Counted from the first letter of the stretch, positions 3,972 to 18,228 are shown. The stretch is DNA of 18,228 nt from Armatimonadota bacterium (GCA_037446215.1 JBBIJB010000050.1:1-18228); one strand, 5' to 3'. A program made the numbers and translations. The notes: generated from the sequence alone by a model not told the origin.

Positions 3972-5378
3972 GTGCGCCCAAACCCGATGCGTGACCTGGT
4001 CGCCATAGCCGCGGGCCGGCTCGCGGCAACAGCCAGCCGTGCGCTGCGCGCCGGCGGCGGCACGACCGTACCCGGGCGCATCGCCACCGCTGTGGCGCCG
4101 GGCCTGATCTCTACCCTCTCGGCGCGCCTCGCCCGTGGCGTGGTCCTCGTGTCCGGCACCAACGGGAAGACGACCACGGCCCGCCTGCTCGGGGGGATCC
4201 TCGACAGCGCGGGGCTGGTGTCCATCCACAACCGTGCCGGTGCCAACCTGCTCTCGGGCGTCGCCTCGGCGCTGGTCGAAAGCTCCACGCTGCTCGGGCG
4301 GCCTCGCGGCGATATGGGGCTGTTCGAGGTTGATGAGGCCACCCTGCCCGCGGTGGTGGAGGCGACGCGGCCCCGCGTGGTGGTCCTTCTCAACCTGTTT
4401 CGGGACCAACTGGACCGTTACGGAGAGATCGACCTGGTCGCCGACAGGTGGCGCCGCGCGCTGTCGGCGATGCCGCGGGAAGCGACCCTCGTCTTCAACG
4501 CCGATGACCCGCTGGTCGCCGATGTGAGCAGGGGCTACGCGGGCCCGATGCTCTCCTTTGGGATCGAGGAGGCGCCTGACCGGGCCGATCCCACCCCGGG
4601 CCTCGAGGCGGCGGCAGACGCCCGCTACTGCTATCGCTGCGGCCGGCCCTACGACTACTCCCTCGTCCTGCTGGGCCACATGGGCCACTACAGCTGTGCG
4701 CGGTGTGGCACCGCGCGCCCCCGTCCCGAGGTCGTCGCCCGCGAGGTGCGCCTCCGAGGGGCAGAAGGGGGCTCCGCCTCCGTCGCCTGGGAAGGGGAGA
4801 CGATGGAGGTCTCCAGTGCCCTCCCAGGCCTCTACAACGTGTACGACGCCACCGCGGCCGCGGCCGCCGCGCTCGCCCTCGGGATCCCGCCCGCCACGAT
4901 CGTGCGAGGCATAGCCGCCACCGCCCCCGCCTTCGGGCGCGGCGAGCGCGTGACGGTAGAAGGGCGCGAGGCGGTCTTCCTCCTTGCCAAGAACCCGGCG
5001 GGCTTCAACGAGGTTCTGCGCACGGTCCTCTACGCCGAGGATGCGCCGGTGGTGCTGATCGCGATCAACGACCTCACGGCCGACGGGAGGGATATCTCGT
5101 GGCTGTGGGACGTGGAGTTCGAGCTGCTCTCAGGGCGCGCCCGCGCCGTCGTCGTCACCGGGACGAGGGGCGAGGACATGGCGCTGAGGCTCAAGTACGC
5201 CGGCGTGGAGGCCGGGCGCGTGACGCTCGAGCACGACCTCGCCCGCGCGATCTCGCGCGCGGGGGAGGCCGCGCGAGAAGGGGAGAGGTTCTACGTGCTC
5301 CCGACCTACACCGCGATGCTCGAGCTGCGCGCGGTGCTCGCGCGCGCCGGGATCGTGCGCGGGTTCTGGAGGCAGTAG
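3972..5378 (+). CDS. murT: Lipid II isoglutaminyl synthase subunit MurT (Mur ligase + DUF1727)
   Basis: P-loop SGTNGKTTT, GANL, FEVDE, NLFRDQLDRYGE, a four-Cys insert (CYRC...CARC), KNPAG, DGRDISWLWD and PTYTAML. Lies directly upstream of gatD. The start may instead be ATG 3987. Confidence 0.92.
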   Translation: MRPNPMRDLVAIAAGRLAATASRALRAGGGTTVPGRIATAVAPGLISTLSARLARGVVLVSGTNGKTTTARLLGGILDSAGLVSIHNRAGANLLSGVASALVESSTLLGRPRGDMGLFEVDEATLPAVVEATRPRVVVLLNLFRDQLDRYGEIDLVADRWRRALSAMPREATLVFNADDPLVADVSRGYAGPMLSFGIEEAPDRADPTPGLEAAADARYCYRCGRPYDYSLVLLGHMGHYSCARCGTARPRPEVVAREVRLRGAEGGSASVAWEGETMEVSSALPGLYNVYDATAAAAAALALGIPPATIVRGIAATAPAFGRGERVTVEGREAVFLLAKNPAGFNEVLRTVLYAEDAPVVLIAINDLTADGRDISWLWDVEFELLSGRARAVVVTGTRGEDMALRLKYAGVEAGRVTLEHDLARAISRAGEAAREGERFYVLPTYTAMLELRAVLARAGIVRGFWRQ

Positions 5379-5384
5379 CCGGCC

Positions 5385-6134
5385 GTGGAGCTGCGCATCT
5401 GCCACCTCTACCCGGACCTGCTCAACCTCTACGGTGACAGGGGGAACGTCACCGTCCTGGTCCGCAGGGCCGAGTGGCGCGGGATCGACGTCAGCCTGGT
5501 GGAGGCGGGGCTTGGGGACCCGGTGGACCCGGAGGGCAGCGACCTCTTCTTCATAGGAGGCGGCGAGGACAGGCAGCAGAGGCTCGCGGCGCAGGACCTC
5601 CGCAACGTCAAGGGCCCCGCGCTGAGCGACGCCGCCGAGGCCGGCGCGGCCGTGCTGGCGGTCTGTGGGGGCTACCAGTTGCTGGGCCACTACTACCGGC
5701 CCTCCGAGGGCCCCGACCTGGAGGGGCTGGGCCTCCTGGACCTCCACACCGTCCACCCCGGCCCCGGATCCCGCCGCCTCATCGGGAACGTGGTGCTTCG
5801 CGAGGCCGCCGGCGGCAGGATGCTGGTCGGCTTCGAGAACCACGGAGGCCGCACACACCTGGGAACAGGGGTTCGGCCCCTCGGGAGCGTGGTCGCTGGC
5901 TGGGGCAACAACGGTGAGGACCGTACCGAGGGGGCGGTCCGCGGGTCGGTCTACGGGACCTACCTGCACGGTCCGCTACTCCCCAAGAACCCCTGGCTGG
6001 CCGACCTGCTGATAGCCGCCGCGCTGCGGAGGCGCTACGGGGCGGCGGAGCTGTCCGACCTTCCCGACAGGGAGGAGGAGCGCGCCGCGCGTGCGGCCGC
6101 CCTCCGCGCCGGGGTGAGAGGAGGAGCGCGTTGA
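5385..6134 (+). CDS. gatD: Type 1 glutamine amidotransferase GatD (CobQ-like)
   Basis: HLYPDLLNLYGDRGN, IGGGED, AVCGGYQLLG (catalytic Cys), GFENHGGRT, GNN and TYLHGPLLPKNP. Confidence 0.92.
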   Translation: MELRICHLYPDLLNLYGDRGNVTVLVRRAEWRGIDVSLVEAGLGDPVDPEGSDLFFIGGGEDRQQRLAAQDLRNVKGPALSDAAEAGAAVLAVCGGYQLLGHYYRPSEGPDLEGLGLLDLHTVHPGPGSRRLIGNVVLREAAGGRMLVGFENHGGRTHLGTGVRPLGSVVAGWGNNGEDRTEGAVRGSVYGTYLHGPLLPKNPWLADLLIAAALRRRYGAAELSDLPDREEERAARAAALRAGVRGGAR

Positions 6135-7345
6135 ACGGAAGAGGTAGGATCTGGCGCATAGCCGCCATCCTGGGGCTGGCGCAGCTCGGGTTCGCGACCG
6201 TGCTGCCGCTGCTCCCGCTGCACCTGACCGAGAACCTTGGCTCGAGCGTCAAGCTGGTAGGGGTGGTAGTGGCCTCCTTCGCGCTGGTGGAGACCTTCTT
6301 CAAGACCGCTTGGGGAGGCGTCACCGACCGCCTGGGCCGAAAGCCCGTCATCGTGACCGGGCTCGGCCTCTCCGCGGTCGCGCCCCTCATAATGGTGGTG
6401 CTGCGGGCGCCGGTGCTGTTCGTGCCGCTGCGGCTGGTCGATGGGCTGGGCTCCGCGGCGCTGTGGCCGGCCGCCGCCTCGGCGGTGGCCGACTCCACCA
6501 CGCCCGACCGCCGCGCCACCGGCATGGCGGTCCTCAACCTCGCCTTCATGGCGGGGCTGGCGGCCGGGCCGGCGCTGGGGCTGTTTGTCTCCGGACTCAT
6601 CGGCGACTTCCGCGCCGGGTTCTTCCTGGCCAGCGGCCTGCTGGCCTCGGCCATGGTCCTGGCCGTCGCCGTCTTCCCCGGCGACCGCACCGGCCGGCCG
6701 CCCAACGGCGCCCTGGTTGGCTATCACTCGGCCGGCCGGCCTGCCGGCGCCCAATCCACCCTCGCCTTCCTGCGCACCACGCGGGCGCTGACCGCCCTCT
6801 ACCTGGTGGCGTTCGTGCAGATGTTCGGCGTGGGGCTGCTGGTGCCCATCGCGGCGATCTTCGCCAAGCAGAGGATCGGGCTGAGTGAGCACCAGATAGG
6901 CGTGCTCTTCCTGGTGGTCGTGGCGTCCACGGCCGCGGCTATGATCCCGGCAGGCCGGCTGGCGGACCGGGTTGGAAAGCCCCGCCTGATTGTCACCGGG
7001 ATGGCCGTCGGCTCGCTGGGCATGTGGGTGATGTCGCTCAGCGACCGGTTGGTGGACGTGCTCGCGGCCGGTGGCCTGCTCGGGATCAGCTACGCGCTGT
7101 CGGCATCCGCCTGGCTGGCGCTGATCACGGAGCTCGCGCCGCCCGGCCGCATGGGGCTGGCGGTGGGCGCCTCGGAGACGGTCCAGGGCCTGGGGCTCGT
7201 GCTTGGCCCGCTGCTGGGAGGGCTGCTCTGGGACACGATCGGCCCAAAGGCGCCCTTCGTGGCGAGCGCGATAGTGATGACCATCGGCGCCGCCGTGGCG
7301 GCGGCCTCTCTGCGCTCCGTCCCGTCGGCCAGGGCTAGGGGCTAG
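6131..7345 (+). CDS. MFS transporter (DHA1/TetA-like, about 12 TM)
   Basis: TTG start overlaps the gatD stop (TTGA), with AGGAG SD. MFS motif A appears in both halves (GGVTDRLGRK, GRLADRVGK). Confidence 0.88.
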   Translation: MNGRGRIWRIAAILGLAQLGFATVLPLLPLHLTENLGSSVKLVGVVVASFALVETFFKTAWGGVTDRLGRKPVIVTGLGLSAVAPLIMVVLRAPVLFVPLRLVDGLGSAALWPAAASAVADSTTPDRRATGMAVLNLAFMAGLAAGPALGLFVSGLIGDFRAGFFLASGLLASAMVLAVAVFPGDRTGRPPNGALVGYHSAGRPAGAQSTLAFLRTTRALTALYLVAFVQMFGVGLLVPIAAIFAKQRIGLSEHQIGVLFLVVVASTAAAMIPAGRLADRVGKPRLIVTGMAVGSLGMWVMSLSDRLVDVLAAGGLLGISYALSASAWLALITELAPPGRMGLAVGASETVQGLGLVLGPLLGGLLWDTIGPKAPFVASAIVMTIGAAVAAASLRSVPSARARG

Positions 7346-8274
7346 CCGGCCTTGCCCCCGGCCACACGCTGGGGGTAGGAGGTCGCCTCGGCCTGCACGA
7401 GCAGCACGCCGCCGATGACCAGCCCTGCCCCCGCCCACTGGGCCGGCCCCATCGTCTCCGCCAGAAGCGCGGTGCCCGCGACCGCGGCCACTACGGGCTC
7501 GAGGGTGGCCACGACCGCTGCCCGGCCCGCCTCGACCCGGCGGAGACCGTCGATGTACAGCAGGTAGGCCGCCACGGTCGGGCCCGCCACCACGTAGATG
7601 AGAGCGGGCACCGCCTGCCTGGAGACCTCCGGCAGCGTCCCTGTGGAGGCCCAGCCCGCCGCGGTCAGCAGCAGCGCCCCGAACCCCAGCGTGTAGACCA
7701 CCGCGGTGAGGGGCGAGTGGCGGCGCATCGCCACCTTTCCGAAGATGCTGTAGAGGCCGTAGGTGAGCCCGGCTCCAAGCCCTGCCAGGAGGCCAGGGGT
7801 GCTGAGGCGCAGCTCCTGCGGCCCCAGCGCGCCAACGACGAGCACGCAGCCGGCGAATGTCAACCCGACGGCGGCCGCCTTCATGCGGGTCATCGACTCG
7901 TGGAACATCAGGCGCGCCAGTACCACCACCCACGCGGGCGCCGTGTACATCAGCACTGCCGCGGTCGCGACGGTGGTGAGCTCGATCGCCGTGAAGTAGA
8001 CCGTCATGAAGCCGGCGACGCTCACCGCGCCGAAGGCGGCCAGCAGGGGCAGGTCCCGAGCCGAGACCACCAGCGCCCTGCGCCGCGCGACCAGGCAGTA
8101 GAGCAGCAGCACCAGGAACGCCCCGGCGGCGCGCAGCCCCGCGGCCTGCAGCGGCGACAGCCCCGCGGCAAAGAGGCTCCGGACTCCGACGCCGACCGTT
8201 CCCCACAGGACCGCGGCGGCGATGATCTGGAGGTAGCCGCGCAGGGCCGGCTCCCCATAGGGTTTGGACAGCAT
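7342..8274 (-). CDS. EamA/DMT family transporter (two EamA repeats, 310 aa)
   Basis: The true start is most likely ATG 8274 (MLSKPYGEPALRGYLQIIAAAVLWG), overlapping the upstream TGA. Typical EamA features: AAVLWG, A.VLMYTAP.WV.VLA..MFHE, LEPVVA, LLAET and G.GLVIGGV. The ORF-track extension to 8784 lies inside the upstream gene. Confidence 0.9.
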   Translation of the reverse strand: MLSKPYGEPALRGYLQIIAAAVLWGTVGVGVRSLFAAGLSPLQAAGLRAAGAFLVLLLYCLVARRRALVVSARDLPLLAAFGAVSVAGFMTVYFTAIELTTVATAAVLMYTAPAWVVVLARLMFHESMTRMKAAAVGLTFAGCVLVVGALGPQELRLSTPGLLAGLGAGLTYGLYSIFGKVAMRRHSPLTAVVYTLGFGALLLTAAGWASTGTLPEVSRQAVPALIYVVAGPTVAAYLLYIDGLRRVEAGRAAVVATLEPVVAAVAGTALLAETMGPAQWAGAGLVIGGVLLVQAEATSYPQRVAGGKAG

Positions 8275-9851
8275 CAGGGCTCGGCGGCTGTGAAGAGCTC
8301 GTTCTCCCGGAGGAAGCTCGCCAGGAGCAGCCGCAGGTACGGGCTGTCGAGCTGGCTGCGGTACTCCTGCATCGCGGCCTGCTTGAGGGCCAGCTCGTCC
8401 GGCTGCAGGTCGAACCGGAGCCAGCGCCAGGAGTCGCGCAGCGACTTCGGGGGCAGCAGGGGCGTGTCCGGGGCGTGCCGGAGCGGCCTGGGGAAGTCCC
8501 ACGCATGTATAAGGAAGGTGTAGAACCTCGGCTCCGAGAGCGCACCCCGCGCGGTCGCGGAGCGGATCGCCCTCCTCACGAACAAGTTCAGCGCCCTGTG
8601 GTCGCGGTGACGGTCGGCCTCGTGGTGGGTCAGGATGACCGTGGGACGCGCGTCCGCGATGACCGCCTCGAGATCGGAGGTGATGTCCGCCCCGGTGTAG
8701 GGGGCCCCTGCCCGGTACGACCTCTTGTAGGGAGAGGCCGAGGCCTTCGTGAACGGCGAGAGGTAGGGGGCGTCCCTCTCCCACTTCTCGATGGCCATGG
8801 TCATCAGGCCGCGGTCCGGATACCCCAGGAACGTTATGCTCTCGGGCGCGACCCCGAGCCGGCCCAGCGCCGAGAGAGCCTCCTCCTGCCGGGCCTCGCC
8901 CTCCGCCACGAAATCGGCGGCGCCGGGCAGCAGCTTCTTGCCGGCGATCGCCGCGGCGAGGCGATTCCCGTCGCCGTTCGTGGCGAGGACCACGCGCACC
9001 TCCGCTCCGGCGGACAGGGCCCGCTGCACCAGGCCTCCGGTGGCGATTAGCTCGTCATCGGCGTGTGCCGCCACGATGAGGAACCGGTCCGCGCCCGTGG
9101 GTTCGGGGAACACCCCCAGGGCGCTTCCTACGGCTCGGGTCACAGAGAACAGTCCCATGGAGACGTATACCACCATCGCCGCAATAATAGTAGTAACAGC
9201 CAGGGCCCTAGCCCGCGGCGCCGGGTCTTTGGGCCGCCTGCCTCGCAGCGCCAGAACCTCGACCGTCATCCGGACCTTGCCCTGCCATCCCCTTATCAAA
9301 CCATACTTCTCCTGCTTGCGGGGATGGAACACACCGGTGAGCGGGACCCTGGCGACCTTCCACCTCTCCTCCCACGAGAGCTCGGTCAGCGCCCTCTCGA
9401 ATCCGAAACGCGTCGCGGCGAGACCCGGTCGGACGAGCAGCCTCCGGCGCCTGATAGCACGGATCCCGGAGAGATAGGGGAGTACCGCCTGCAGCAGGTC
9501 GTCCGAGAGCACGCCCACCGCCATGTCGCAGCCGCCGTCTTGCACCGGACGCACCAGCTCCCGTATCTCGCCGGGCTTGAGGCCCTCCAGGTCGGCGTCC
9601 AGCAGTAGAAGCACTTCGCCGCGCGCGCGCCTGGCCGCTGCCATGACCGCGCCGCCCTTGCCCAGGTTCTTCGGTAGGCGGATGACCAGGTCGGCGCCGG
9701 CGGCGGCCGCCGCCTCCGCCGTGGCGTCGGTCGATCCGTCCGAGACGACGATGACCTCGGCAACGCCGGCGGAGCGCCTCGCCGCTGCGATTACGCCCGC
9801 GACCGTGCGTTCCTCGTTGTAGGCGGGGATTATGCAGGATACCGCGGTCAT
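8274..9851 (-). CDS. Fusion: GT2 glycosyltransferase - single TM helix - PIG-L/LmbE family deacetylase (525 aa)
   Basis: ATG 9851 overlaps the upstream stop (ATGA). GT2 motifs IIPAYNEE, VVSDGSTD, NLGKGGA and LLDAD (DxD). Hydrophobic stretch ALAVTTIIAAMVVYVSMGLFSV. PIG-L motifs AAHADDE, TNGD, R.EEA, FLGYPD and DRHRDH. Confidence 0.85.
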   Translation of the reverse strand: MTAVSCIIPAYNEERTVAGVIAAARRSAGVAEVIVVSDGSTDATAEAAAAAGADLVIRLPKNLGKGGAVMAAARRARGEVLLLLDADLEGLKPGEIRELVRPVQDGGCDMAVGVLSDDLLQAVLPYLSGIRAIRRRRLLVRPGLAATRFGFERALTELSWEERWKVARVPLTGVFHPRKQEKYGLIRGWQGKVRMTVEVLALRGRRPKDPAPRARALAVTTIIAAMVVYVSMGLFSVTRAVGSALGVFPEPTGADRFLIVAAHADDELIATGGLVQRALSAGAEVRVVLATNGDGNRLAAAIAGKKLLPGAADFVAEGEARQEEALSALGRLGVAPESITFLGYPDRGLMTMAIEKWERDAPYLSPFTKASASPYKRSYRAGAPYTGADITSDLEAVIADARPTVILTHHEADRHRDHRALNLFVRRAIRSATARGALSEPRFYTFLIHAWDFPRPLRHAPDTPLLPPKSLRDSWRWLRFDLQPDELALKQAAMQEYRSQLDSPYLRLLLASFLRENELFTAAEP

Positions 9852-10516
9852 CTCGGCGGTCCGTGGCTCCAATGCGCGTCCCCGGATCCCTCCCGCCGCG
9901 CCATGAAGTACCTGCCCGTCAACACCTGCTCGGTCCTAACGCTGTCACAGCCCAACTCCCTCAGCCTGCCCGCGAGCGAGCGCACCACCCACGGCAGCAC
10001 CGAGCCCCCGGCGGTGTAGGACATCACCACCCAGCCCCCGGGCCTCAGCACGCGCACTATCTCGTGCGGTACAGGGAATGCGTTCTGCACCGTCACGAGG
10101 TCGAACGCGCCGGCCCCGAACGGCAGCATCGCCGCATCGGCGCAGGTGAAGCCCGCGCGCCACCCTTCCGCGCCGGCGCGCGCCACCGCCATTGCCAGCA
10201 TCGCGGGCGAGAGGTCGACCGCCGCTCCGCGGCACTCCGGGAAGCGCCGCAGCACGACCCCGATCGCCGCCCCGGTGCCCGTGCTTATGTCGAGGGCACT
10301 GCTCGGCGCGGCGGGCAGGTTGTCCAGCGCCGCCTCCAGCGGGGCCAGGTAGCCCTCCTGGTGGAGCACATCGGCGTCGTAGCGCGCGGCCAGAGCGCCG
10401 TATCTGCTCAGCGCGGCCGCCCGCTGCAGCGGGGAGCCGATGAACCGCGAGTTCCAGGCTCCCACCGCCAGGTATACCGTGTCCGTTATGAACGAGCTTA
10501 GCCAGGTCGCCCGCAT
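9848..10516 (-). CDS. Class I SAM-dependent methyltransferase
   Basis: Motif I variant ALDISTGTG, plus VDLSPAML, ADAAMLPF..GAFDLV and EIVRVLRPGG. Confidence 0.85.
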   Translation of the reverse strand: MRATWLSSFITDTVYLAVGAWNSRFIGSPLQRAAALSRYGALAARYDADVLHQEGYLAPLEAALDNLPAAPSSALDISTGTGAAIGVVLRRFPECRGAAVDLSPAMLAMAVARAGAEGWRAGFTCADAAMLPFGAGAFDLVTVQNAFPVPHEIVRVLRPGGWVVMSYTAGGSVLPWVVRSLAGRLRELGCDSVRTEQVLTGRYFMARREGSGDAHWSHGPPR

Positions 10517-10546
10517 CGGCTGCCCCGCTAGGTGTCGCTTCGGGTT

Positions 10547-11758
10547 CTACTCAGGTTCTCTGCCGGGGGGCGGGCTCCTGCCGTCCCAGACGATGCGGCC
10601 TCCCACCACGGTCATCCGCGCGCTCAGCCCCTCGTCGAGGAGGACGAGGTCTGCGCGCTTTCCCGGAGCGAGGCTGCCCCGGTCCCCGTCTATCCGCATG
10701 AAGCGGGCCGGGTTGATGGTGGCGAGCTTCACCGCGTCCCCGAGGCCGAGGCCGACCTCGCGCACCAGCGTCCGCAGGCAGCGGTCCATGGTCGCGATGC
10801 TGCCCGCGAAGAAGCTGCGGTCCGGGAGCTTGGCCACACCGTCCTCCACCAGGATCGTACGTCCCGCGGCGGTGTGCTCTCCCTCCGGGAACCCGGCCAC
10901 GCGGACCGCGTCGGTGCAGACGCACAGCCGATCCAGCCCCTTTGCCTTGATTATGAGACGGATCAGGCTGGGCGGCAGGTGCCGGCCGTCCGCTATCATT
11001 TCGGTCGTAAGTTCGTCCAGGAGGAGGGTGGCCTCTATCACGCCCGGGATCCTGTAGGCCTGAACCCGCCGCAGGCCGGACATGCTCGAGTACATGTGGG
11101 TTACGTGGGTGAAGCCGGCCTCGACCGCGGCCACCACGTCATCGATCGTGGCCGCCGTGTGACCGATCGAGGCGACGATGCCGTTCTGGACGAGCAGCCG
11201 GCCCAACTCCAGTGCCCTGGGAACCTCCGGGGCCACCGACATCCGGCGCACTATGTCGGAGAACGACAGCAGCCGGTCCCACTCCTCCGGGTCGGGCTCC
11301 TTCATGGCGCCCGCGGGCTGGGCGCCGGCCTCCGCGGGCGCGAAGTACGGGCCCTCGACGTGGACCCCGGCGATGTCTGCACCGTCGCGGGTCTGTTGGG
11401 CTGATCGGCGCAGAGCCTCCAGCGCGCGGAGAATCTCCTCCACCGGCGCGGTCCGGAGCGTCGCCAGCACCGAGGTCGTGCCTCCACGGGCGTGGAAGGC
11501 GCAGGCGCGGTCGGTCGCCTCCTGGGAGGCGTCCATGAAGTCGGCTCCATTCCCTCCGTGGACGTGGATGTCGACGAAGCCCGGGACGACGGCATACCCG
11601 GAAGCGTCGACGACGTGGGCGTCGCCGGGAACGGGCGTGCCGGATGAAGGGCCCACCGTCTCGACGCGCCCGTCTCTCGCCACCACCGTGCCGTCCGGAA
11701 TCTCGCGAAAGGGAGTGAAGATCCTGCCGCCCGCAAGGGCCAACGGCTGCGCGGCCAT
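10547..11758 (-). CDS. nagA: N-acetylglucosamine-6-phosphate deacetylase family amidohydrolase
   Basis: PGFVDIHVHG, GGTTS, GVHVEGPY, APE, SIGHT, THMYSSM, IADGRH, TDA, AGS, NPAR and GSLAPGKRADLV. SD GGAGGT lies 8 nt upstream of the ATG. Confidence 0.88.
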   Translation of the reverse strand: MAAQPLALAGGRIFTPFREIPDGTVVARDGRVETVGPSSGTPVPGDAHVVDASGYAVVPGFVDIHVHGGNGADFMDASQEATDRACAFHARGGTTSVLATLRTAPVEEILRALEALRRSAQQTRDGADIAGVHVEGPYFAPAEAGAQPAGAMKEPDPEEWDRLLSFSDIVRRMSVAPEVPRALELGRLLVQNGIVASIGHTAATIDDVVAAVEAGFTHVTHMYSSMSGLRRVQAYRIPGVIEATLLLDELTTEMIADGRHLPPSLIRLIIKAKGLDRLCVCTDAVRVAGFPEGEHTAAGRTILVEDGVAKLPDRSFFAGSIATMDRCLRTLVREVGLGLGDAVKLATINPARFMRIDGDRGSLAPGKRADLVLLDEGLSARMTVVGGRIVWDGRSPPPGREPE

Positions 11759-11773
11759 CTATGCACACCTCCG

Positions 11774-11802
11774 GCGAGGGGGCCGCGCCGCGGCCCCCTC
11801 GC
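11774..11802. other. Perfect 13-bp intergenic inverted repeat (stem-loop) between SIS paralog B and nagA
   Basis: GCGAGGGGGCCGC-gcc-GCGGCCCCCTCGC, with no flanking U-tract on either strand. Confidence 0.7.
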
Positions 11803-11819
11803 TACCCGTCCGCCCCCGG

Positions 11820-12572
11820 CTAGAGGTGCTTCACCAGGGGGCGGTACTTCTCGTTGAACGGCGCGTTGATCTCGTCGGCGCCGGCCATGTTGCCGCTGTA
11901 CCACACCTCCGGCGTCGCGCCGGCCTTCACCACCCGGTCCACCACCTCGGTGACGAGCGCCTGGACTATGTAGGTGTTTATCACGGTGGAGACCGAGGCC
12001 ACCTTCCTGTCGAATCCGTCTATGTCCACCACCGCGTCACCGGGCGGGACGTGGGCGTCTATTACGACGTCGGCGAGGTCGCATAGATTCTGGTTGCTCG
12101 GGTGTCTTGCCGAGATTCCCGGCTCGACGCCCTCGGCGAACTCGCGCGACGTCACGGCGATCACGGTGACGCCCCGCTTGCGGCACTCCATCGCCGTGTC
12201 GATCGTCACCGCGTTGATCCCGTTGACGTTGATCAGAACCAGAAGGTCGCCCTGCTTGACGCGGTAGTAGTCGAGGACGTGCTGCGCGAAGCCTACCACC
12301 CTCTCGGTGTTCGGGTGGCCCTCCAGGTTTGCGATCCCCGGCGGGAAGAGGGGGTTCCAGGCCGCGAGCCCGCCCGCCCTCCAGAAGAGCTCCATCGCGC
12401 CCATGACCGAGTGCCCGCCGGTGCCGAAGACGTGCACCAGCTCGCCCTTCAGCATCTTCTCAGCGACCAGGTCCGCGGCCCGGCCCAGGTTGGCGCGCTC
12501 CTCGCTCCTGACGCGCTCCAGTATGGAGATGCACGACTCGTAGAAGCGGTCCATCGGTGCGGTTGCTGTCAT
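11820..12572 (-). CDS. SIS-domain sugar isomerase-like protein, UPF0309-type (paralog B)
   Basis: AADLVAE, VHVFGTGGHS, E.F.RAGGL, TER, GDLLVLI, VIAVTS, RHPS..NL.D.ADVVID.H.PPGDA and a C-terminal SGN..G...N....EKY...VKHL. AGGAGG SD. Confidence 0.85.
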   Translation of the reverse strand: MTATAPMDRFYESCISILERVRSEERANLGRAADLVAEKMLKGELVHVFGTGGHSVMGAMELFWRAGGLAAWNPLFPPGIANLEGHPNTERVVGFAQHVLDYYRVKQGDLLVLINVNGINAVTIDTAMECRKRGVTVIAVTSREFAEGVEPGISARHPSNQNLCDLADVVIDAHVPPGDAVVDIDGFDRKVASVSTVINTYIVQALVTEVVDRVVKAGATPEVWYSGNMAGADEINAPFNEKYRPLVKHL

Positions 12573-12584
12573 GCGTCGGTCCTC

Positions 12585-13868
12585 CTACTTGTATCCGATG
12601 TCGCGAAGCTGCCGGGCGGCCCACTGCATGGCGTCCTTTGGCTTCATCTGCCCCGTGACGACCTGGGCGAACATGTTCGGCAGCACGAACGTGGCGTAGG
12701 CGGCCTGGGCGCGCCGGTCCGGCGGCGCCGGCCAGCCGGTCAGCCGCTGCCACTTGGTGTAGCCGATGATCCCCTCCAGCTTGGTGTCTGCGCGCCAGAC
12801 CGGGTGCCGGTCGAACTTGGGGTGGGCCGGCATGTTGAACCCGCCGCCGGTCTCGATGTAGCGGTTCTGGTTCGCCTCCTCGTAGAAGAAGCGGAGGAAG
12901 TCCTTGGCCGCCTCCTTGTTGCGGGCGAACTTCCAGATGCCGAAGCTGTAGAAGTCGCCGATGCCGAACCGCCCCTTGGGTCCGAGCAGCGCGCCGTGGT
13001 GGTTCAGGTTGGCGGCGACCTCCGGGGCGGTGCGCTTGGCCGTCACGTAGACGCTGATGGGGTTCAGGGTCCATGAGCCGCGGCCCGACAGGATGAAGCG
13101 GTTGTTCCCCGCGTTGTCCCAGGCGAGTACCTCCCGGTCCATCTGCGGGAAGATCTCCTGGACGTAGGCTATCGCCGCCTCGGTCTCGGGCGACTCGATC
13201 GCCACCACTCCCTCAGGCGTCGCCGTCTTGCCGCCGAACGCCCACAGTATCTGGTAGAGCGTGTTGTTGGCGTCGCCGGCCTGGCTGATAGGGAAGCCGA
13301 TCGGGCGGTCGATCCCCCGCAGCTTCTTGGCCGCGCGCAGCACGTCCGCCCAGCTCGCCGGGTGCCGCTCGCCGACCTGCCTGAAGTAGTCCTCCCGGTA
13401 GGTGCCGTGGAAGGCCACGGTCATCCTCGGCACGGCCTTCCAGCGGCCGTTGAGGAAGCACGCCTGCTTGGCCACGGGATGCCACTGCCCCCAGCGCTTG
13501 ATTATCTCGTCGTTGACGTCGTTGATGTCCTCCAGCTGCCCCTCGACCATGGCGGTCTGCAGGTTCTCGAGCCCAACGATGTCGTGGCCTCGCTGCGCCG
13601 AGACCTCTGCCGCGTGCTTGGCGGCCATCTCGGGGATCGAGACGAAGTCCACGGTGACCTTGACGTTTGCCTTCCTGCCGAACTCGGCGGCCTGCCTCCG
13701 CAGCTCCTCGTCGTTCGCCGAGACGAAGGAGCTGAACATCAGGATGCTCATCTCCCGCTCCTGCCCGAGGGCAATCTGCGGGAAGCGGCTCGTCAGCCCC
13801 AGGCCGTAGGCGGCCCCTGCCGCGCCCGCGGCCTTGACCAACTGCCTTCTGGTCACTCTAGCTGCCAT
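12585..13868 (-). CDS. Carbohydrate ABC transporter (CUT1) substrate-binding protein with Tat signal peptide
   Basis: Twin-arginine motif TRRQLVK followed by a hydrophobic region. SBP family 1 features include YREDYF, P.SW.D, AFGG, WDNAGNN, AAKDFL and F.QVVTG. GGGAGGAG SD. Confidence 0.9.
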   Translation of the reverse strand: MAARVTRRQLVKAAGAAGAAYGLGLTSRFPQIALGQEREMSILMFSSFVSANDEELRRQAAEFGRKANVKVTVDFVSIPEMAAKHAAEVSAQRGHDIVGLENLQTAMVEGQLEDINDVNDEIIKRWGQWHPVAKQACFLNGRWKAVPRMTVAFHGTYREDYFRQVGERHPASWADVLRAAKKLRGIDRPIGFPISQAGDANNTLYQILWAFGGKTATPEGVVAIESPETEAAIAYVQEIFPQMDREVLAWDNAGNNRFILSGRGSWTLNPISVYVTAKRTAPEVAANLNHHGALLGPKGRFGIGDFYSFGIWKFARNKEAAKDFLRFFYEEANQNRYIETGGGFNMPAHPKFDRHPVWRADTKLEGIIGYTKWQRLTGWPAPPDRRAQAAYATFVLPNMFAQVVTGQMKPKDAMQWAARQLRDIGYK

Positions 13869-13942
13869 CTGGATCTCCTCCCTTTGCTGTCGGATCTATC
13901 TGCCCGCTGCCCTGCCGATCTCTCCCCGCCGCGCTTGTCGGA

Positions 13943-14782
13943 TCACTTGATGGCGCCGGCGGTAAGGCCCGAGATGTAGTAGTCGAGCAGGAAGGCGTAG
14001 ATCACGGCGATCGGTACCGATCCCAGGACCGCCCCCGCCATCAGCTCTCCCCAGTAGTACACGTCGCCGCGGATCAACTCCGTGACGACCGCCGGCCCGA
14101 GCGTCTTCTGTGCCGTCGAGCTGACGAATGTTACGGCGTAGATGAACTCGTTCCACGAGAGCGTGAAGGCGAACAGCGTCGCCGTGAGGACTCCCGGGAT
14201 CGCGGTTGGGAGGATGACGCGCACCAGTGCGCCCACGTAGCCGCACCCGTCTATCAGCGCGCTCTCCTCGAGCTCCTTCGGGATGGTGCGGAAGTAGCTC
14301 ATCAGAAGCCAAGTCGCGAAGGGAACAAGGAAGGTCGGATACGAGACCACGAGCGCCCACCGCGTGTCCCCGAGGTTGAGCGCACGCAGGACCTGGGCGA
14401 GCGGTATGAAGAGGAGCGTCGTCGGCACCAGGTATACGGCGAATATCAGCCCGCCCAGGGTCTCGCCCCCGCGGAACCTCATCCTGGCCAGCGCGTAGGC
14501 GGCCAGGGTGCTTATAGCCACCGCGATCGCCGTCGAGAGCACCGCCACGAGCGCGGTGTTGCCCATCCACGTGGCGAAAGCGGTGCGCTCGAACAGGAAG
14601 CGGTAGTGCTCCAGCGTCGGCGCGGACTGGAACCATAGGGGGATCGCCTTGAGGTCGTAGAGCTCCGTGTTCTGCTTCAGCGACGTAATGACCATCCAGT
14701 AGAACGGGAAGAGCAGGACGACCACGAATGGAAGAACGGCCAGGTAGTAGGCCGCGGCCCGGCGCGTCCGGCGGCCTACCAT
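13943..14782 (-). CDS. Carbohydrate ABC transporter permease (MalG-like)
   Basis: FPFYWMVITSLK, the EAA loop IPKELEESALIDG, WNEF and G.TAGAIK. ATG 14782 sits 8 nt after AGGAGG; GTG 14788 is an alternative start. Confidence 0.92.
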   Translation of the reverse strand: MVGRRTRRAAAYYLAVLPFVVVLLFPFYWMVITSLKQNTELYDLKAIPLWFQSAPTLEHYRFLFERTAFATWMGNTALVAVLSTAIAVAISTLAAYALARMRFRGGETLGGLIFAVYLVPTTLLFIPLAQVLRALNLGDTRWALVVSYPTFLVPFATWLLMSYFRTIPKELEESALIDGCGYVGALVRVILPTAIPGVLTATLFAFTLSWNEFIYAVTFVSSTAQKTLGPAVVTELIRGDVYYWGELMAGAVLGSVPIAVIYAFLLDYYISGLTAGAIK

Positions 14783-15723
14783 TCCCACTTCCTCCTCATC
14801 AGGCGCATCTGGTAGAAGACGATGATCATCAGGAACGGCAGCATGAAGAGCGAGGTAGCGGCCCCGCGGCCTATCTCGCCGGTGATCAGGCCGGTCTGGT
14901 GGGCCAGGGTGGCGAGCAGGTGAGTGCTGTTGAGCGGGCCGCCCCTCGTCAGCACGTACACTATGTTGAAGTCGCTTATCGTCATGATCAGGGAGAACAG
15001 GATGACCGTGGCCAGGACGGGCCGCAGCAGCGGTACGGTTATCAGCCAGAAGCGTGTGAACGAGTTGGCTCCGTCGGTCTCCGCCGCCTCGTATATGTCG
15101 TCCGGAACCGAGAGGAGCCCCGCCAGGAGGTTCACCGCGAAGAACGGGATCCCACGCCAGACGTTTACTATTATCACCGAGGTACGGGCGAGGCCCGCCT
15201 CACCGAGCCACTGCAGGTCCGATATGTAGTTGATGGCGCCGAGCTTCACGAGGACCCAGTTGATGACGCTGAACTGGGGCTCGAACATCCACTTCCAGCC
15301 GACCGTGCTGAGCGCGGTGGGCACGATCCACGGCAGGAGGATCGCCGCGCGGATCAGGCGGCTCCCGGGCAGGCGGTGGCGCCCCAGCCCGGCGAGCACC
15401 AGCGCGAGGAGCATCCCGAGGACTACCTTCGCGATCACTGCCGCCGTGGCGTAGATCGCCGTGTTCTTGAGCGTCTGCTGGAAGATCTCCTGGCGGAGGA
15501 GCCTGATGAACTGCCCCAGGCCGACAAACCGGCCCAGGTCGCCGATCACCGCGTCGCTGGTGGCGAGGTAGAGGGCGAGCAGGAACGGGTACCCGACCAG
15601 GACGGCCAGCAGCGTCACGGCGGGAGCCACGAAGGTGTAGGCCGTGGCCGCCTCGGGGCTCAGGCGAAAGGGTCCGGTCCGCCTTCCGGTAGCCGGGGTG
15701 GGCGCCTTGGGCGTAGGTCCCAC
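14776..15723 (-). CDS. Carbohydrate ABC transporter permease (MalF-like)
   Basis: FVGL, LLPWIVP, WKWMF, VWRGIPF, the EAA loop YEAAETDGA, ITVPLLRP and LTRGGP. The start codon is uncertain (see findings). Confidence 0.92.
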   Translation of the reverse strand: MGPTPKAPTPATGRRTGPFRLSPEAATAYTFVAPAVTLLAVLVGYPFLLALYLATSDAVIGDLGRFVGLGQFIRLLRQEIFQQTLKNTAIYATAAVIAKVVLGMLLALVLAGLGRHRLPGSRLIRAAILLPWIVPTALSTVGWKWMFEPQFSVINWVLVKLGAINYISDLQWLGEAGLARTSVIIVNVWRGIPFFAVNLLAGLLSVPDDIYEAAETDGANSFTRFWLITVPLLRPVLATVILFSLIMTISDFNIVYVLTRGGPLNSTHLLATLAHQTGLITGEIGRGAATSLFMLPFLMIIVFYQMRLMRRKWEW

Positions 15724-15727
15724 CTCC

Positions 15728-16474
15728 CTAGTACTGATGGATGACCCTCCCGCGGTAGCGCTCGTGGATGCGCAGGCTCCGCTCCCTGCCTCCCGGGAGG
15801 TTGGCGCTGTAGCGCACCAGCACCTCCATCCCCCGCTCGACCATCCGCTCCGCGACGAGGGCTACCAGGCAATTCACTATCAGGACGACCGGGAATGTCG
15901 ATCCGGAGGCGACCTTGTGCTCCACCCCTGCTATGTCGAGCAGCGCGTCCCCGGGAGGGATGTGGCAGTCGATCGTTATGTCCGCGATATCGCACAGGTT
16001 CTGCCCGCTGGGGTGGCGGGCCGGCGTACCCTGCGCCACGCCCTCCGCGAACTCCCGGGAGGTGACCGCGATCACCTTCGCCCCCCGGGCCCTTGCCTCC
16101 AGCGCGGAGTCTATGGTGACCGCGTTGATGCCGTTGACGTTGATCACGATTATGACGTCGCCCGCGCCCACGCCGTAGTGGTTGAAGATCGCCGGGACGT
16201 ATCCGACCAGCCTCTCGGTGTTGGGATGGCTGTCCGTGACCGAGATGCCCGGAGGGAATATCCCGTTGATCGGGTAGAGCCCCCCTGCGCGCTGAAACAT
16301 CTCCATCGCGCCCATTATGGAGTGGCCCCCGGTCCCGAAGACGTGGATCACCCGGTCCTCTGCCAGCTTCTCGATCAGGAGGTCGGCGGCGGCACCCATC
16401 TGCTCCTGCTCGCGCTCCATCACGGTCTGCATGATCCCTGTGACGGCGCGGTAGTATCTCTCAGCGGCGTTCAT
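15728..16474 (-). CDS. SIS-domain sugar isomerase-like protein, UPF0309-type (paralog A, 248 aa)
   Basis: The start is most likely ATG 16474 (MNAAERYY) after AGAGGGAGGA, overlapping the gntR 3' end. It has the same motifs as paralog B: IHVFGTGGHS, RAGGL, HPNTER, INVNGINAVTID and RHPSGQNL. Confidence 0.85.
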   Translation of the reverse strand: MNAAERYYRAVTGIMQTVMEREQEQMGAAADLLIEKLAEDRVIHVFGTGGHSIMGAMEMFQRAGGLYPINGIFPPGISVTDSHPNTERLVGYVPAIFNHYGVGAGDVIIVINVNGINAVTIDSALEARARGAKVIAVTSREFAEGVAQGTPARHPSGQNLCDIADITIDCHIPPGDALLDIAGVEHKVASGSTFPVVLIVNCLVALVAERMVERGMEVLVRYSANLPGGRERSLRIHERYRGRVIHQY

Positions 16475-17174
16475 CGCTTTCCTCCCTCTCTGGTGTCGAG
16501 TCGGATCCGGCGGGCAGGGAGAGGAGCGGAGCAAGGGCCTCGGCCCGCCTTCTGACCTTGCGGAGGTGGTCGGTCAGGGCTTCCGCCGCCTCGATGCTGT
16601 TCTTCCGCTGGAGCGCGCAAAGGACCCTCTCGTGCTCCTGTAGGCTCTGCTCAAGCTCCTGGAGCCGCGTCTGCTCCTGGAAGTAGAACAGGCGCAGGGT
16701 GTGCATGTGCGAGTTCATCGATCTAAACAGCCGCAGCAGGAGCAGGTTGCCGGAGGCCGCCACGATGGACTCATGGAACTCCCGGTCGGCGACGTTGTTC
16801 GCCATGTACTCCCGGTCGGCCACGGCGCCGCAGAAGCGCGAGTGGATGCCCTCGAGCCTAAGTACCAGCCCGTCGCCGATCGGCCTTATCTGGCGCACGG
16901 CGAACACCTCGAGCATCAGACGGCAGTCCAGCATCTCGTAGATGTCGCGGGCCGAGAGCGGCGTGACGTGATAGCCCTGGTTCCTCCGATAGACCACCAG
17001 CCCTTCGCCCTGAAGACGCCCCAGGGCTTCACGGATGGGGGTGTGGCTCACGCCCAACTCCCGGGCGATCTGGTCTATGGGTACCCTCTCGCCAGGCCTC
17101 CATGCCTGCTCGAGGATCCGCTCCCGGATGGCATCCGTGACCTGCTCGGAGATCACCTGCACGCCTATCACCAC
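16461..17174 (-). CDS. GntR family transcriptional regulator with FCD domain
   Basis: wHTH (IRERIL..W.PGERV....IARELGVSHTPIREAL.RL..EGLV) and an FCD domain (R..LE, D.EFH..IV.ASGN, EH..V..AL, L..HL). Confidence 0.92.
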   Translation of the reverse strand: MVIGVQVISEQVTDAIRERILEQAWRPGERVPIDQIARELGVSHTPIREALGRLQGEGLVVYRRNQGYHVTPLSARDIYEMLDCRLMLEVFAVRQIRPIGDGLVLRLEGIHSRFCGAVADREYMANNVADREFHESIVAASGNLLLLRLFRSMNSHMHTLRLFYFQEQTRLQELEQSLQEHERVLCALQRKNSIEAAEALTDHLRKVRRRAEALAPLLSLPAGSDSTPEREESDERR

Positions 17175-17178
17175 CGGT

Positions 17179-17206
17179 TGCGATCCTATATCCTATAGGG
17201 TTCGCA
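17179..17206. promoter_or_regulatory. Putative GntR operator overlapping a -10-like element upstream of gntR
   Basis: Imperfect palindrome TGCGATCCTATA-tcc-TATAGGGTTCGCA containing a tandem TCCTATA repeat. It is an AT-rich patch in a GC-rich region. The minus strand reads TATAGGATATAGGAT, with the last TAGGAT ending 8 nt before the GTG. Confidence 0.55.
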
Positions 17207-17248
17207 TTGGGTAGGTTCTCGCTCGTGGGGCTTGGAACCTGCAGGAGC

Positions 17249-18228
17249 CTACTGGTGCGAGGCCCGGATGAAGGGCTCGCCCTCCACCACCGGTATCGTC
17301 TCGGCGCCGTGAGTTATGACTGTGAGGCGGGCACTCCGGCCGTGGCGGTCCAGCGCGGCGTCGAGGGCCGCCTGGGCGCTGGGAAACGGCCTCATCCTGG
17401 CGCGCCGGGCCTGCTGGGGCGTCAGGCCGTCCGACACGAGGGAGACGTCAAGCCGCGCCCTCACGCGCAGCGATGCCGCCGCCACCGACAGCGGCAGCAG
17501 CTCCGAGGCCGGCGTCCTCTCGGACCTGGCGAGGAGCTCCTCGGGGCCGGCCTCCGAGAGATAGTCGAGGTAGTGCGGGTGCGGCCCCACGCCCTCCGGG
17601 CACGGCGCGACGAGTATGGCGGTTCCGCCGGGCAGCGCCGCCAGGTCGGCCGCCAGCAGTCCCTTCCCTGCCTGCCAGAGGTCGGCGTCGGCGGGGTGGG
17701 AGGCGGTGACCACGATCTCTGCCCTTCGCCCGGTCGGGACGCAGAAGATCTCCCTCGCGGCGGCCACGGCCCGACGATGCGCCCCGACGAAGTGGCCTGC
17801 CGCGGCCCGGTAGATCCTCCCGTCCGGTGTAAACGCCACGTTGACTATGAACTCCAACCCCACCCGCTCGGCGACCCACGACTCCATCGCCAGCCGGACC
17901 CGGCTCTCCTCTGAGCCGAACATGTTCTGCGGGGTGCGGCCGTGCATCAGGTGGAAGGCCGCCACCGTCTCTTCGCCGGCGACTCCCGGGAAGATGATCT
18001 TGCCTCCCCCGGACCAGCCGGCGGCGGGGTGGGGGAGGACGCCTCCCAGGCCCACCCTGATGTCGGCCTCCACGGCGCGCCTGTCGAGCCAGATCTCGGG
18101 TCCGCCGGGGAGGCCGGGCAGGCGCACCATCAGCGATCTGTCGCGGAACTCGGAGTTGACCACCCGGATCCGGCGGCGGAGGTCTTTGCCGACCTTGCGA
18201 TCGATCTCGGCCTCGGTCATGGGGCGGT
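17249..18228 (-). CDS. LarA-family nickel-pincer-dependent racemase/epimerase (5' truncated by window edge)
   Basis: The frame continues to the window edge as (H)RPMTEAE. PHPAAGWSGGGKIIFPGVAG corresponds to the LarA SHFFAGFSGGRKSVLPGIA motif. AAFH, FIVNV, AG....AH, DLWQAGKG, GGTAILVAPCPEG and the C-terminal fold also match LarA. Confidence 0.88.
   Translation of the reverse strand, partial: RPMTEAEIDRKVGKDLRRRIRVVNSEFRDRSLMVRLPGLPGGPEIWLDRRAVEADIRVGLGGVLPHPAAGWSGGGKIIFPGVAGEETVAAFHLMHGRTPQNMFGSEESRVRLAMESWVAERVGLEFIVNVAFTPDGRIYRAAAGHFVGAHRRAVAAAREIFCVPTGRRAEIVVTASHPADADLWQAGKGLLAADLAALPGGTAILVAPCPEGVGPHPHYLDYLSEAGPEELLARSERTPASELLPLSVAAASLRVRARLDVSLVSDGLTPQQARRARMRPFPSAQAALDAALDRHGRSARLTVITHGAETIPVVEGEPFIRASHQ

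Follow-up and report, generated by a model that had tools for sequence, protein, structure and literature searches.

The 18,228 bp of DNA analysed here (JBBIJB010000050.1:1-18228 of assembly GCA_037446215.1; hereafter, the window) make up the whole of contig C50 of an Armatimonadota genome of 2.16 Mb in 149 contigs, which is 91% complete and has a G+C content of about 70%. Positions 10547–18228 carry eight co-oriented genes on the minus strand. In the order of transcription, they encode a LarA homologue, a GntR regulator with an FCD domain, a UPF0309 protein of the SIS_2 family (SIS1), two permeases and the substrate-binding protein (SBP) of an ATP-binding cassette (ABC) importer, a second UPF0309 protein (SIS2) and a paralogue of the deacetylase NagA. 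Searches with Pfam and NCBIfam profiles returned the same families as an earlier model-made interpretation of this DNA (the sequence-only reading). The new element is the assignment of SIS1 and SIS2 to a large uncharacterised branch of UPF0309; otherwise, the cluster is of a known kind, an amino-sugar operon. It is a conserved catabolic module with uncharacterised enzyme variants, by which an acetylated amino sugar is imported and probably broken down, and its chemistry may differ from the textbook route through N-acetylglucosamine 6-phosphate (GlcNAc-6P). A more specific reading, to which we give a probability of roughly 0.4, is that this segment, from an Armatimonadota-like bacterium, represents the downstream portion of a conserved catabolic operon, the substrate being an imported N-acylated amino sugar or derivative with a distal group other than 6-phosphate, which would undergo deacetylation by NagA, enolisation by the SIS proteins and epimerisation by LarA.

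SIS1 (15728–16474, minus strand, 248 aa) and SIS2 (11820–12572, minus strand) are 53% identical and score 235.7 and 243.8 bits with the UPF0309 profile NF002805 (PRK02947; cut-off 135), residues 6–250 of SIS2 covering profile positions 3–246 of 247. The start of SIS1 was set by identity to the database gene call P0085, the start-codon residue being excluded from the comparison. The best solved relative of both proteins is NagS (SCO4393, PDB 9eol; E = 5.9e-36 over residues 5–244 of SIS2 and 1.5e-30 for SIS1), followed by 3cvj. NagS, reported in 2025, is the sole UPF0309 member with a known reaction. As the sequence-only reading had stated, it is a GlcNAc-6P dehydratase of Streptomycetaceae that works with NagA (PDB 9eol, 9f7o and 9f7v; PMC12680351, available in part). 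A search on the name UPF0309 found no paper in the library covered, and the ESM Atlas gave only generic "SIS domain-containing" clusters.

In the accessible text of PMC12680351, residues H53, R64, E94 and D179 of NagS are essential, S91 and N228 are important, and the phosphate is bound by S54, S119 and S121. Aligned to 9eol, SIS1 and SIS2 are identical to NagS at the equivalents of H53/S54, R64, E94, D179 and N228. However, the five-residue loop bearing S91 is absent from both, and the NagS stretch S119-L-S121-G-R-N reads N-V-N-G-I-N, with both phosphate serines replaced by Asn and R123 by Ile; in addition, the G-x-G-H-S loop is one residue longer than in NagS. The orthologues of NagS are described there as confined to Streptomycetaceae. 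Among four homologues assayed, one with 65.5% identity was active, and three with 25.7–35.7% identity showed negligible or no activity (PMC12680351, in the part available). Orthology with NagS is defined by an identity of at least 58.7%, occurrence in Streptomycetaceae and a divergent dmdR1 neighbour. The window genes fall outside this definition, lying outside that family and without dmdR1 in an importer operon, in two or three copies, with GntR, permease, SBP and NagA genes as neighbours. The kinship with NagS held, but SIS1 and SIS2 are not its orthologues: they lack the S91 loop, both phosphate serines are replaced, and distant homologues were inactive.

The replacement of the serines is a property of a whole branch. 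The motif NxNG[IV]N is found in 116 of the 120 closest representatives of 90% clusters. Among 150 representatives obtained by clustering at 50%, Ser occupies both positions in 94, and the G-x-G-H-S loop is not extended in any of these; the second position is Asn or Tyr in another 38, while 17 have other residues and 1 is gapped. A tree of 92 sequences (quick search, SH-aLRT support only) places SIS1 and SIS2 on separate sub-branches inside one clade of 30 rows (support 98) and shows an independent SIS duplication in spirochaete loci. Proteins of the N-V-N type and of an A-Y-G type share a locus in L024, L031, L036 and L066, as well as in the genus of the window, and the closest named relatives of the window proteins come from Armatimonadota metagenome-assembled genomes (MAGs). 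By these alignments, SIS1 and SIS2 belong to a distinct, widespread branch of UPF0309 that keeps the catalytic residues and has the phosphate serines replaced. As a conjecture, the two might pair in a mixed dimer, or each might accept a different epimer of the substrate. In the serine-containing branch, ten representatives (P0155, P0162, P0167, P0186, P0208, P0215, P0225, P0243, P0247 and P0261) are 469–683 aa long and have an extra domain of about 230–440 aa, the SIS domain being C-terminal in nine of them and N-terminal in P0155.

The NagA paralogue (10547–11758, minus strand) passes the TIGR00221 equivalog (278.6 bits; cut-off 225.65) and fails the E. coli-type model NF008371 (197.9 bits; cut-off 483). 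With the enzymes of the canonical nagA/nagB pathway (E. coli, B. subtilis, mycobacterial 6fv3) it shares the amidohydrolase fold and the metal and catalytic motifs: HxH, E (hvEGP), H (igHt), H (vtH) and D (ctDa) align with 6fv3 and 2vhl. The phosphate site is different. According to the available part of PMC6016474, the NagA of M. smegmatis (6fv3) holds the phosphate by Asn212, the amide of Ala213 and Arg219/Arg220 of the other subunit, and unphosphorylated GlcNAc is not its substrate. In comparison with 6fv3, the window protein has Ser for Asn212 and four residues inserted before the invariant Arg, while this Arg and a second conserved Arg are kept. Its loop reads THMYSSMSGLRRVQAYRIPG, against THLFNAMPPYH----HREPG in a second, higher-scoring NagA on contig C114, which follows the canonical pattern THLFNAMxxxH----HREPG and adjoins a NagZ-like gene of glycoside hydrolase family 3 (GH3). 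The 35 NagA-like proteins linked to SIS genes of this branch comprise 18 with the variant loop, 15 of a third type and 2 canonical ones. The variant occurs alongside another NagA in the window's own genome and in G002, G006, G041, G045, G048 and G050, whereas in G042, G044 and G046 no other NagA was found.

A further departure from the canonical pathway is the content of the cluster. The Pfam and NCBIfam searches bore out the earlier statement that kinase, phosphotransferase system (PTS), NagB, NanE and MurQ families have no match among the eight genes; neither MurQ nor FrlB models are among the NCBIfam matches of the cluster proteins at E ≤ 0.001. The tight packing described before was also recovered, with distances from larA to nagA, in the order of transcription, of 74, −14, 4, −13, 74, 12 and 61 bp, i.e., overlaps or gaps under 80 bp. 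A consensus scan of 7000–18228 for promoters and terminators gave nothing above shuffled controls.

The importer appears to be of the CUT1 type. The cluster provides a family-1 SBP (12585–13868, minus strand; SBP_bac_8 86 bits, SBP_bac_1 63.7 bits, twin-arginine translocation (TAT) signal 22.6 bits), a MalG/GlcU-like permease (13943–14788, minus strand; BPD_transp_1 59.7 bits, GlcU and MalG below cut-off) and a MalF/UgpA-like permease (14776–15723, minus strand; BPD_transp_1 63 bits, MalF, UgpA and GlcT below cut-off). An open reading frame (ORF) at 13896–14636, in another frame over the second permease and without a family match, was taken as spurious. Among solved structures, the SBP has only a weak match, to MalE3 (E = 2e-12). 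There is no ATPase gene in the cluster, so the ATPase would have to come from elsewhere; MalK-like ATPases are encoded in other parts of the genome, for example on contig C8 at 9804–10904, with OB_MalK and TOBE_2 domains. The regulator (16461–17174, minus strand; GntR 63.4 bits, FCD 72.4 bits) has a GntR winged helix-turn-helix and an FCD domain, as members of the FadR/FCD subfamily do, and its gene shares 14 bp with that of SIS1.

In the pathway that we propose, the substrate would enter the cell unphosphorylated, and the NagA paralogue would remove its N-acetyl group. The SIS enzymes would then use the C2-enolisation chemistry of their relatives, either for isomerisation with deamination or for β-elimination at C3. 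The distal anionic group of the substrate would be something other than a 6-phosphate ester. The likeliest group is a carboxylate, of the kind carried by an amino-uronic acid or by a lactyl ether such as N-acetylmuramic acid (MurNAc). The LarA homologue, if active, would invert an α-hydroxy-acid centre of the acid product.

The cluster in the window is truncated upstream and is the downstream part of a larger operon. Genomes G006 and G002 of the same genus keep the whole cluster with 75–92% protein identity, and upstream of larA they carry a second module. Its importer genes code for a family-1 SBP and two permeases; its third SIS protein shares 39% identity with SIS2, and its NagA-like amidohydrolase, the second in these genomes' cluster, shares 34% with the window NagA. 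A LacI regulator, which is divergent, and a TIM gene of the xylose-isomerase-like kind complete the module. Hence larA stands between two importer/SIS/amidohydrolase modules in both genomes. In the window's own genome, the 7.8 kb contig C101 holds an RpiR gene, the TIM gene, LacI, the SBP of the upstream module (92% identity) and its first permease; since this is the start of the upstream module, the rest of it lies in an assembly gap.

Neighbourhoods of the SIS branch were compared in 78 loci of 2.1–20.7 kb, found by scanning one genome per species. Because NGIN was itself among the scan patterns, the set represents this branch by construction. Neighbours were identified by tblastn with the window proteins and by clustering and Pfam annotation of representatives; as some singleton genes had no annotation, the counts of kinases given below are minima. 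Simple ORF picking may also hide genes in L012, L013 and L074, and the neighbour cluster "unk441" proved to be a wrong-strand ORF artefact of this procedure in high-GC loci. The phyla include Armatimonadota, Bipolaricaulota, Acidobacteriota, Atribacterota, Spirochaetota, Bacillota, Bacteroidota, Thermodesulfobacteriota, Planctomycetota and several archaea. ABC permeases were found in 40 loci, NagA-like proteins in 37–41, SBP_bac_1 in 26, GntR/FCD regulators in 20, NagB-like proteins (PF01182) in 16, ROK proteins in 15, a ceramidase-N-like protein in 15, GFO/IDH/MocA oxidoreductases and ABC ATPases in 14 each, LarA in 11 by each method and 12 in union (7 phyla), SDR proteins in 7 and tripartite ATP-independent periplasmic (TRAP) transporters in about 6. 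At least 10 loci have a xylose-isomerase-like TIM gene next to SIS, and the archaeal loci have SSF transporters.

Homologous clusters do not consistently include a ROK/BadF kinase. Nine ROK neighbours were scanned, those of L025, L028, L034, L046, L052 and L063 (399–522 aa) and two fragments in L038 being left out. Seven of them align with NagC/Mlc along its whole length, the DNA-binding end included, one is of the kinase type (L040, 339 aa) and one has no match. With seven of the eight matching proteins resembling NagC/Mlc regulators, a ROK kinase was rejected as a general feature of these clusters. As for other kinases, FGGY members are present in 3 of the 78 loci and PfkB members in 2. The adjacency of larA also recurs outside the window: of the seven further genomes of this genus, five show it, and so do the 12 loci mentioned. 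The earlier proposal of a non-canonical route for an N-acyl sugar or sugar acid thus keeps its kinase-free conserved cluster, the UPF0309 kinship and the larA adjacency, but has to face an unlinked ROK kinase and NanE in the genome and the lack of LarB, LarC and LarE, which are described below.

Several loci give hints of acidic sugars. In the isolate Tepidanaerobacter sp. GT38 (L047, 4758–13292), the operon consists, in this order, of a nagB-like gene, a variant nagA, TRAP genes DctPQM, SIS, UxuA (D-mannonate dehydratase, 517 bits), which comes directly after SIS, and LacI. An enolase-superfamily (MR_MLE) enzyme accompanies NanE and the ROK kinase in L040, an AGE-family 2-epimerase is encoded in both L045 and L046, and in L086 6PGD occurs together with a LarA homologue of the hexonate type. 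The TIM genes beside SIS are a further hint of this kind. The idea of an acid sugar is favoured by the TRAP transporters, the 20 FCD-GntR regulators and UxuA after SIS in L047, but UxuA, a UxuB-type reductase with Mannitol_dh_C and 2-keto-3-deoxy-6-phosphogluconate (KDPG) aldolase were not found in the window's own genome. For this reason, the uronate form was rejected for that genome, and an amino-uronate is kept only as one candidate among substrates. Local tblastn searches of the same genome with UxuA, NagB-like, ceramidase-like, AGE, LarB and LarC queries likewise found nothing; as the genome is 91% complete, such absences are not proof.

A protein of 430–520 aa with a weak neutral-ceramidase N-terminal match accounts for the ceramidase-N-like neighbours in 15 of the 78 loci (e.g., L045:13431–14831) and is also encoded in L107:2014–3375; a role as a further amidase in the pathway is conceivable.

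The LarA homologue (17249 to beyond 18228, minus strand) is represented by its 3′ 325 codons only, because the window is the whole contig and the gene runs off its end. It contains Lar_N (83.3 bits) and LarA_C (51.7 bits), and equivalents of H174, K184 and H200 are visible in it; alignment of the full-length orthologue from G006 (81% identical) to 5HUQ shows these three as well as R75 and H108. Both domains and all five residues are shared with the LarA superfamily of nickel-pincer 2-hydroxyacid racemases and epimerases, to which malate racemases and gluconate 2-epimerase also belong (PMC11770544 and PMC7583248). In contrast to the curated subfamilies, the fragment remains under every NCBIfam LarA-family cut-off, the best being LarAH6 malate racemase (201 vs. 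500). Among the models tested (LarAH5/6, LarAH10, hexonate epimerase and lactate racemase), the G006 orthologue reaches no characterised subfamily either: it scores 316.6 vs. 500 with LarAH6, 290.3 vs. 460 with LarA lactate racemase, and 251.8 vs. 540 and 241.7 vs. 462 with others. Its residues at the specificity positions F175, F176, W358 and T359 are P, A, V and A, the alignment at 358/359 being less certain, and this combination matches none of the superfamily signatures listed in the available part of PMC11770544. The terms SIS, N-acetyl, NagA, muram- and glucosamin- do not occur in that paper.

A serious possibility is that LarA is not a working part of the pathway in this genus, either because it closes the upstream module and has an unrelated role there, or because the enzyme lacks its cofactor. 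LarB, LarC and LarE do not exceed their cut-offs in the window's own genome or in G002, G003, G005, G006 and G007, the five genus genomes carrying the orthologue, four of which are at least 92% complete (best LarB 27 vs. 175, best LarE 55 vs. 150, LarC no match), and larA itself is absent from two of the seven other genomes of the genus. Only 12 of the 78 SIS loci have a LarA gene, and these genes divide among three subfamilies: of ten scanned, seven resemble the G006 orthologue (best LarAH6, 256–338 bits), those of L057 (478) and L088 (606) are lactate racemases above the cut-off of 460, and that of L086 is of the putative hexonate epimerase type. Against an idle LarA stand the conservation of all catalytic and nickel-pincer nucleotide (NPN)-binding residues in the orthologue, the place of larA between the two modules in G002 and G006 and the recurrence of the larA–SIS adjacency across 7 phyla. 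LarC was also found in 4 of the 11 genomes with a SIS-linked LarA gene. Nickel-pincer epimerisation, as first suggested, is supported in its domains and residues but not in the accompanying genes, nor by a single subfamily. In L019 (9830–13530), a SIS gene of the branch lies 0.5–2 kb from LarB-like (AIRC) and LarC (Ni_insertion) genes. Elsewhere in the window, at 1006–2256 on the plus strand, a 416-aa ORF beside a GH31 gene has a sub-threshold Lar_N match (20.8 vs. 23.3 bits) and weakly matches the LarA structure 9eid (E = 0.0018); possibly, its product is a very distant LarA/DUF2088-like protein.

The competing explanation of the whole cluster with the best standing, though unlikely on balance, is the ordinary use of GlcNAc or chito-oligosaccharides, with ABC import, phosphorylation by an unlinked ROK kinase, NagA acting on GlcNAc-6P, the SIS pair serving as a NagB substitute (glucosamine-6-phosphate (GlcN-6P) deaminase/isomerase) and larA as a bystander. 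A number of observations favour it and weigh against a substrate without 6-phosphate. The genome has a kinase-type ROK among housekeeping genes on C8 (254.8 bits; glucokinase cut-off 260.35) and, on C13 (35811–42473, L110), a NanE gene followed by genes for a PG_binding-like protein, a family-1 SBP, a permease and a D-aminopeptidase (M55), a cluster that may serve muropeptide or amino-sugar salvage. It has two NagA genes and a NagZ-like gene, and PF01182 NagB was not found in it. With the ROK kinase and NanE present, an unlinked kinase and the standard phosphorylated route have to be reckoned with, and with NagB missing the SIS pair could simply replace it. SIS-fold GlcN-6P deaminases are established in other families. 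On the side of the enzymes, the window NagA exceeds the TIGR00221 cut-off and keeps two loop arginines, so an anionic group is bound, which is possibly still phosphate. The Asn or Tyr residues at the serine positions of the SIS proteins could likewise hydrogen-bond a phosphate. The NagS variants S54A, S119A and S121A are still active in the accessible text of PMC12680351.

The reverse search points in the same direction. It yielded 80 metagenome loci (L111–L190) with an alignment to the variant NagA, the variant loop being recognised in 70. A SIS gene of this branch is present in only 7 of the 80, so the idea of a loop specific to SIS clusters was rejected; NagB-like genes are present in 53, MFS in 29, SusC in 14, SusD in 9 and LarA in 5, and GFO-type oxidoreductases in 23, 13 and 10 loci (one a GFO/IDH/MocA type with Oxidoreduct_C). 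The variant NagA is therefore a broad, widespread subfamily, mostly paired with NagB-like genes. Kinase families were absent from the 27 neighbour-cluster representatives scanned from these loci, and the kinases may just be unlinked; taken together, the counts place the variant NagA mostly in ordinary-looking GlcNAc clusters with unlinked kinases. Finally, the neighbourhoods of the SIS branch are so heterogeneous that a single substrate for all loci is unlikely, and the missing LarB, LarC and LarE and the three LarA subfamilies bear on the last step of the proposed pathway. What keeps the ordinary route from prevailing is the replacement of both phosphate serines in both SIS copies and across the branch, together with the canonical NagA already encoded elsewhere in the genome and the TRAP transporters and UxuA of some homologous operons. 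In addition, a NagB-like gene stands beside SIS in 16 of the 78 loci, where SIS is thus not simply a NagB substitute; the three representatives scanned score 88–164 bits, all under the nagB cut-off of 236.9. Should the SIS pair nevertheless just replace NagB, it would explain GlcNAc catabolism in NagB-less genomes.

SIS domains are textbook phosphosugar binders. A bolder generalisation, which we regard as doubtful, is that the serine-less UPF0309 proteins are the first SIS-fold enzymes acting on phosphate-free sugars, within a widespread phosphorylation-independent route that also employs the variant NagA and a new LarA subfamily, with LarA operating without a recognisable LarB, LarC or LarE in this genus. 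The substrates would then be N-acetyl amino-sugar acids or 3-O-substituted N-acetylhexosamines, in bacteria and archaea. If this were true, LarA without LarB, LarC and LarE would imply scavenging of the nickel-pincer cofactor or another way of making or replacing it. An analogous case is the ong pathway of Pseudoalteromonas for GlcNAc1A from oxidised chitin, in which deacetylation and deamination occur without prior phosphorylation after import of the secondary or ABC type (PMC9537276, available in part). The pathway was rejected as the identity of the present cluster, because its enzymes are unrelated: as far as the accessible text of PMC9537276 describes, it uses a D-aminoacylase-type OngB, pyridoxal phosphate (PLP)-dependent OngC, KdgK and an RpiR regulator, and has no SIS, NagA or LarA.

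In the preferred reading, substrates that are unphosphorylated or acidic amino sugars would show by what missing route uncultured lineages turn over the sugars of cell walls, capsules or oxidised chitin, and an unassigned LarA subfamily would gain a physiological substrate. The Tepidanaerobacter operon offers a cultivable entry point for the question of acid amino sugars.

Peptidoglycan salvage appears improbable. Here, the SIS proteins would be MurQ-like etherases that cleave the D-lactyl ether of imported MurNAc, with or without a phosphate, to yield GlcNAc and D-lactate; NagA would deacetylate downstream, and LarA would racemise the lactate. The available part of PMC12680351 sets NagS near MurQ, the MurNAc-6P etherase, with a shared three-serine phosphate site. 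Compared by description only, MurQ has the SIS fold in common with the window proteins but acts on a 6-phosphate via three serines, which the window branch lacks. A carboxylate substrate would suit the FCD-GntR and TRAP associations, and the genome has wall-recycling genes (the NagZ-like gene, NanE beside an ABC system and the D-aminopeptidase), but the cluster contains neither a MurNAc kinase nor an amidase. Lactate racemases do occur among the SIS-linked LarA proteins (L057 and L088), whereas the window LarA is not one by score (fragment 201 vs. 460; G006 orthologue 290 vs. 460) and has P/A/V/A instead of F/F/W/x at the specificity positions, with LarB, LarC and LarE not found in the genus.

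A very improbable option is that glycated amines (Amadori or Heyns compounds) are catabolised in the manner of frl, with the SIS proteins as deglycases. The parts list resembles that of the B. subtilis frl operon, in which a SIS enzyme is accompanied by a GntR regulator and a CUT1 ABC importer; a xylose-isomerase-like TIM epimerase is added in E. coli. Such TIM genes flank SIS in at least 10 loci and, within the genus, are located upstream, but FrlB is of another SIS family and needs the kinase FrlD, and the strongest recurrent partners, NagA-, NagB- and NagC-like, point to substrates of the N-acetylhexosamine type.

The co-oriented run extends past position 10547. A methyltransferase gene (9848–10516, minus strand) follows nagA after a 30-bp gap and overlaps by 25 bp with a gene for a fusion of glycosyltransferase family 2 (GT2) and PIG-L domains (8274–9872, minus strand), both assigned with Pfam. 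The two are possibly on the same transcript as nagA, their membership in the operon being uncertain. Homologues of both (64% and 63% identity) lie directly 3′ of a GntR and a related SIS gene in an Armatimonadota MAG (L074); G006 has ceramidase-N-like, SBP_bac_6 and ABC ATPase genes in place of the pair. Farther away, at 3972–6134 on the plus strand, a MurT/GatD pair (peptidoglycan iso-glutamine amidation) is located between NlpC/P60 and M48 peptidase genes, which precede it, and an MFS transporter gene; it represents ordinary cell-wall housekeeping.

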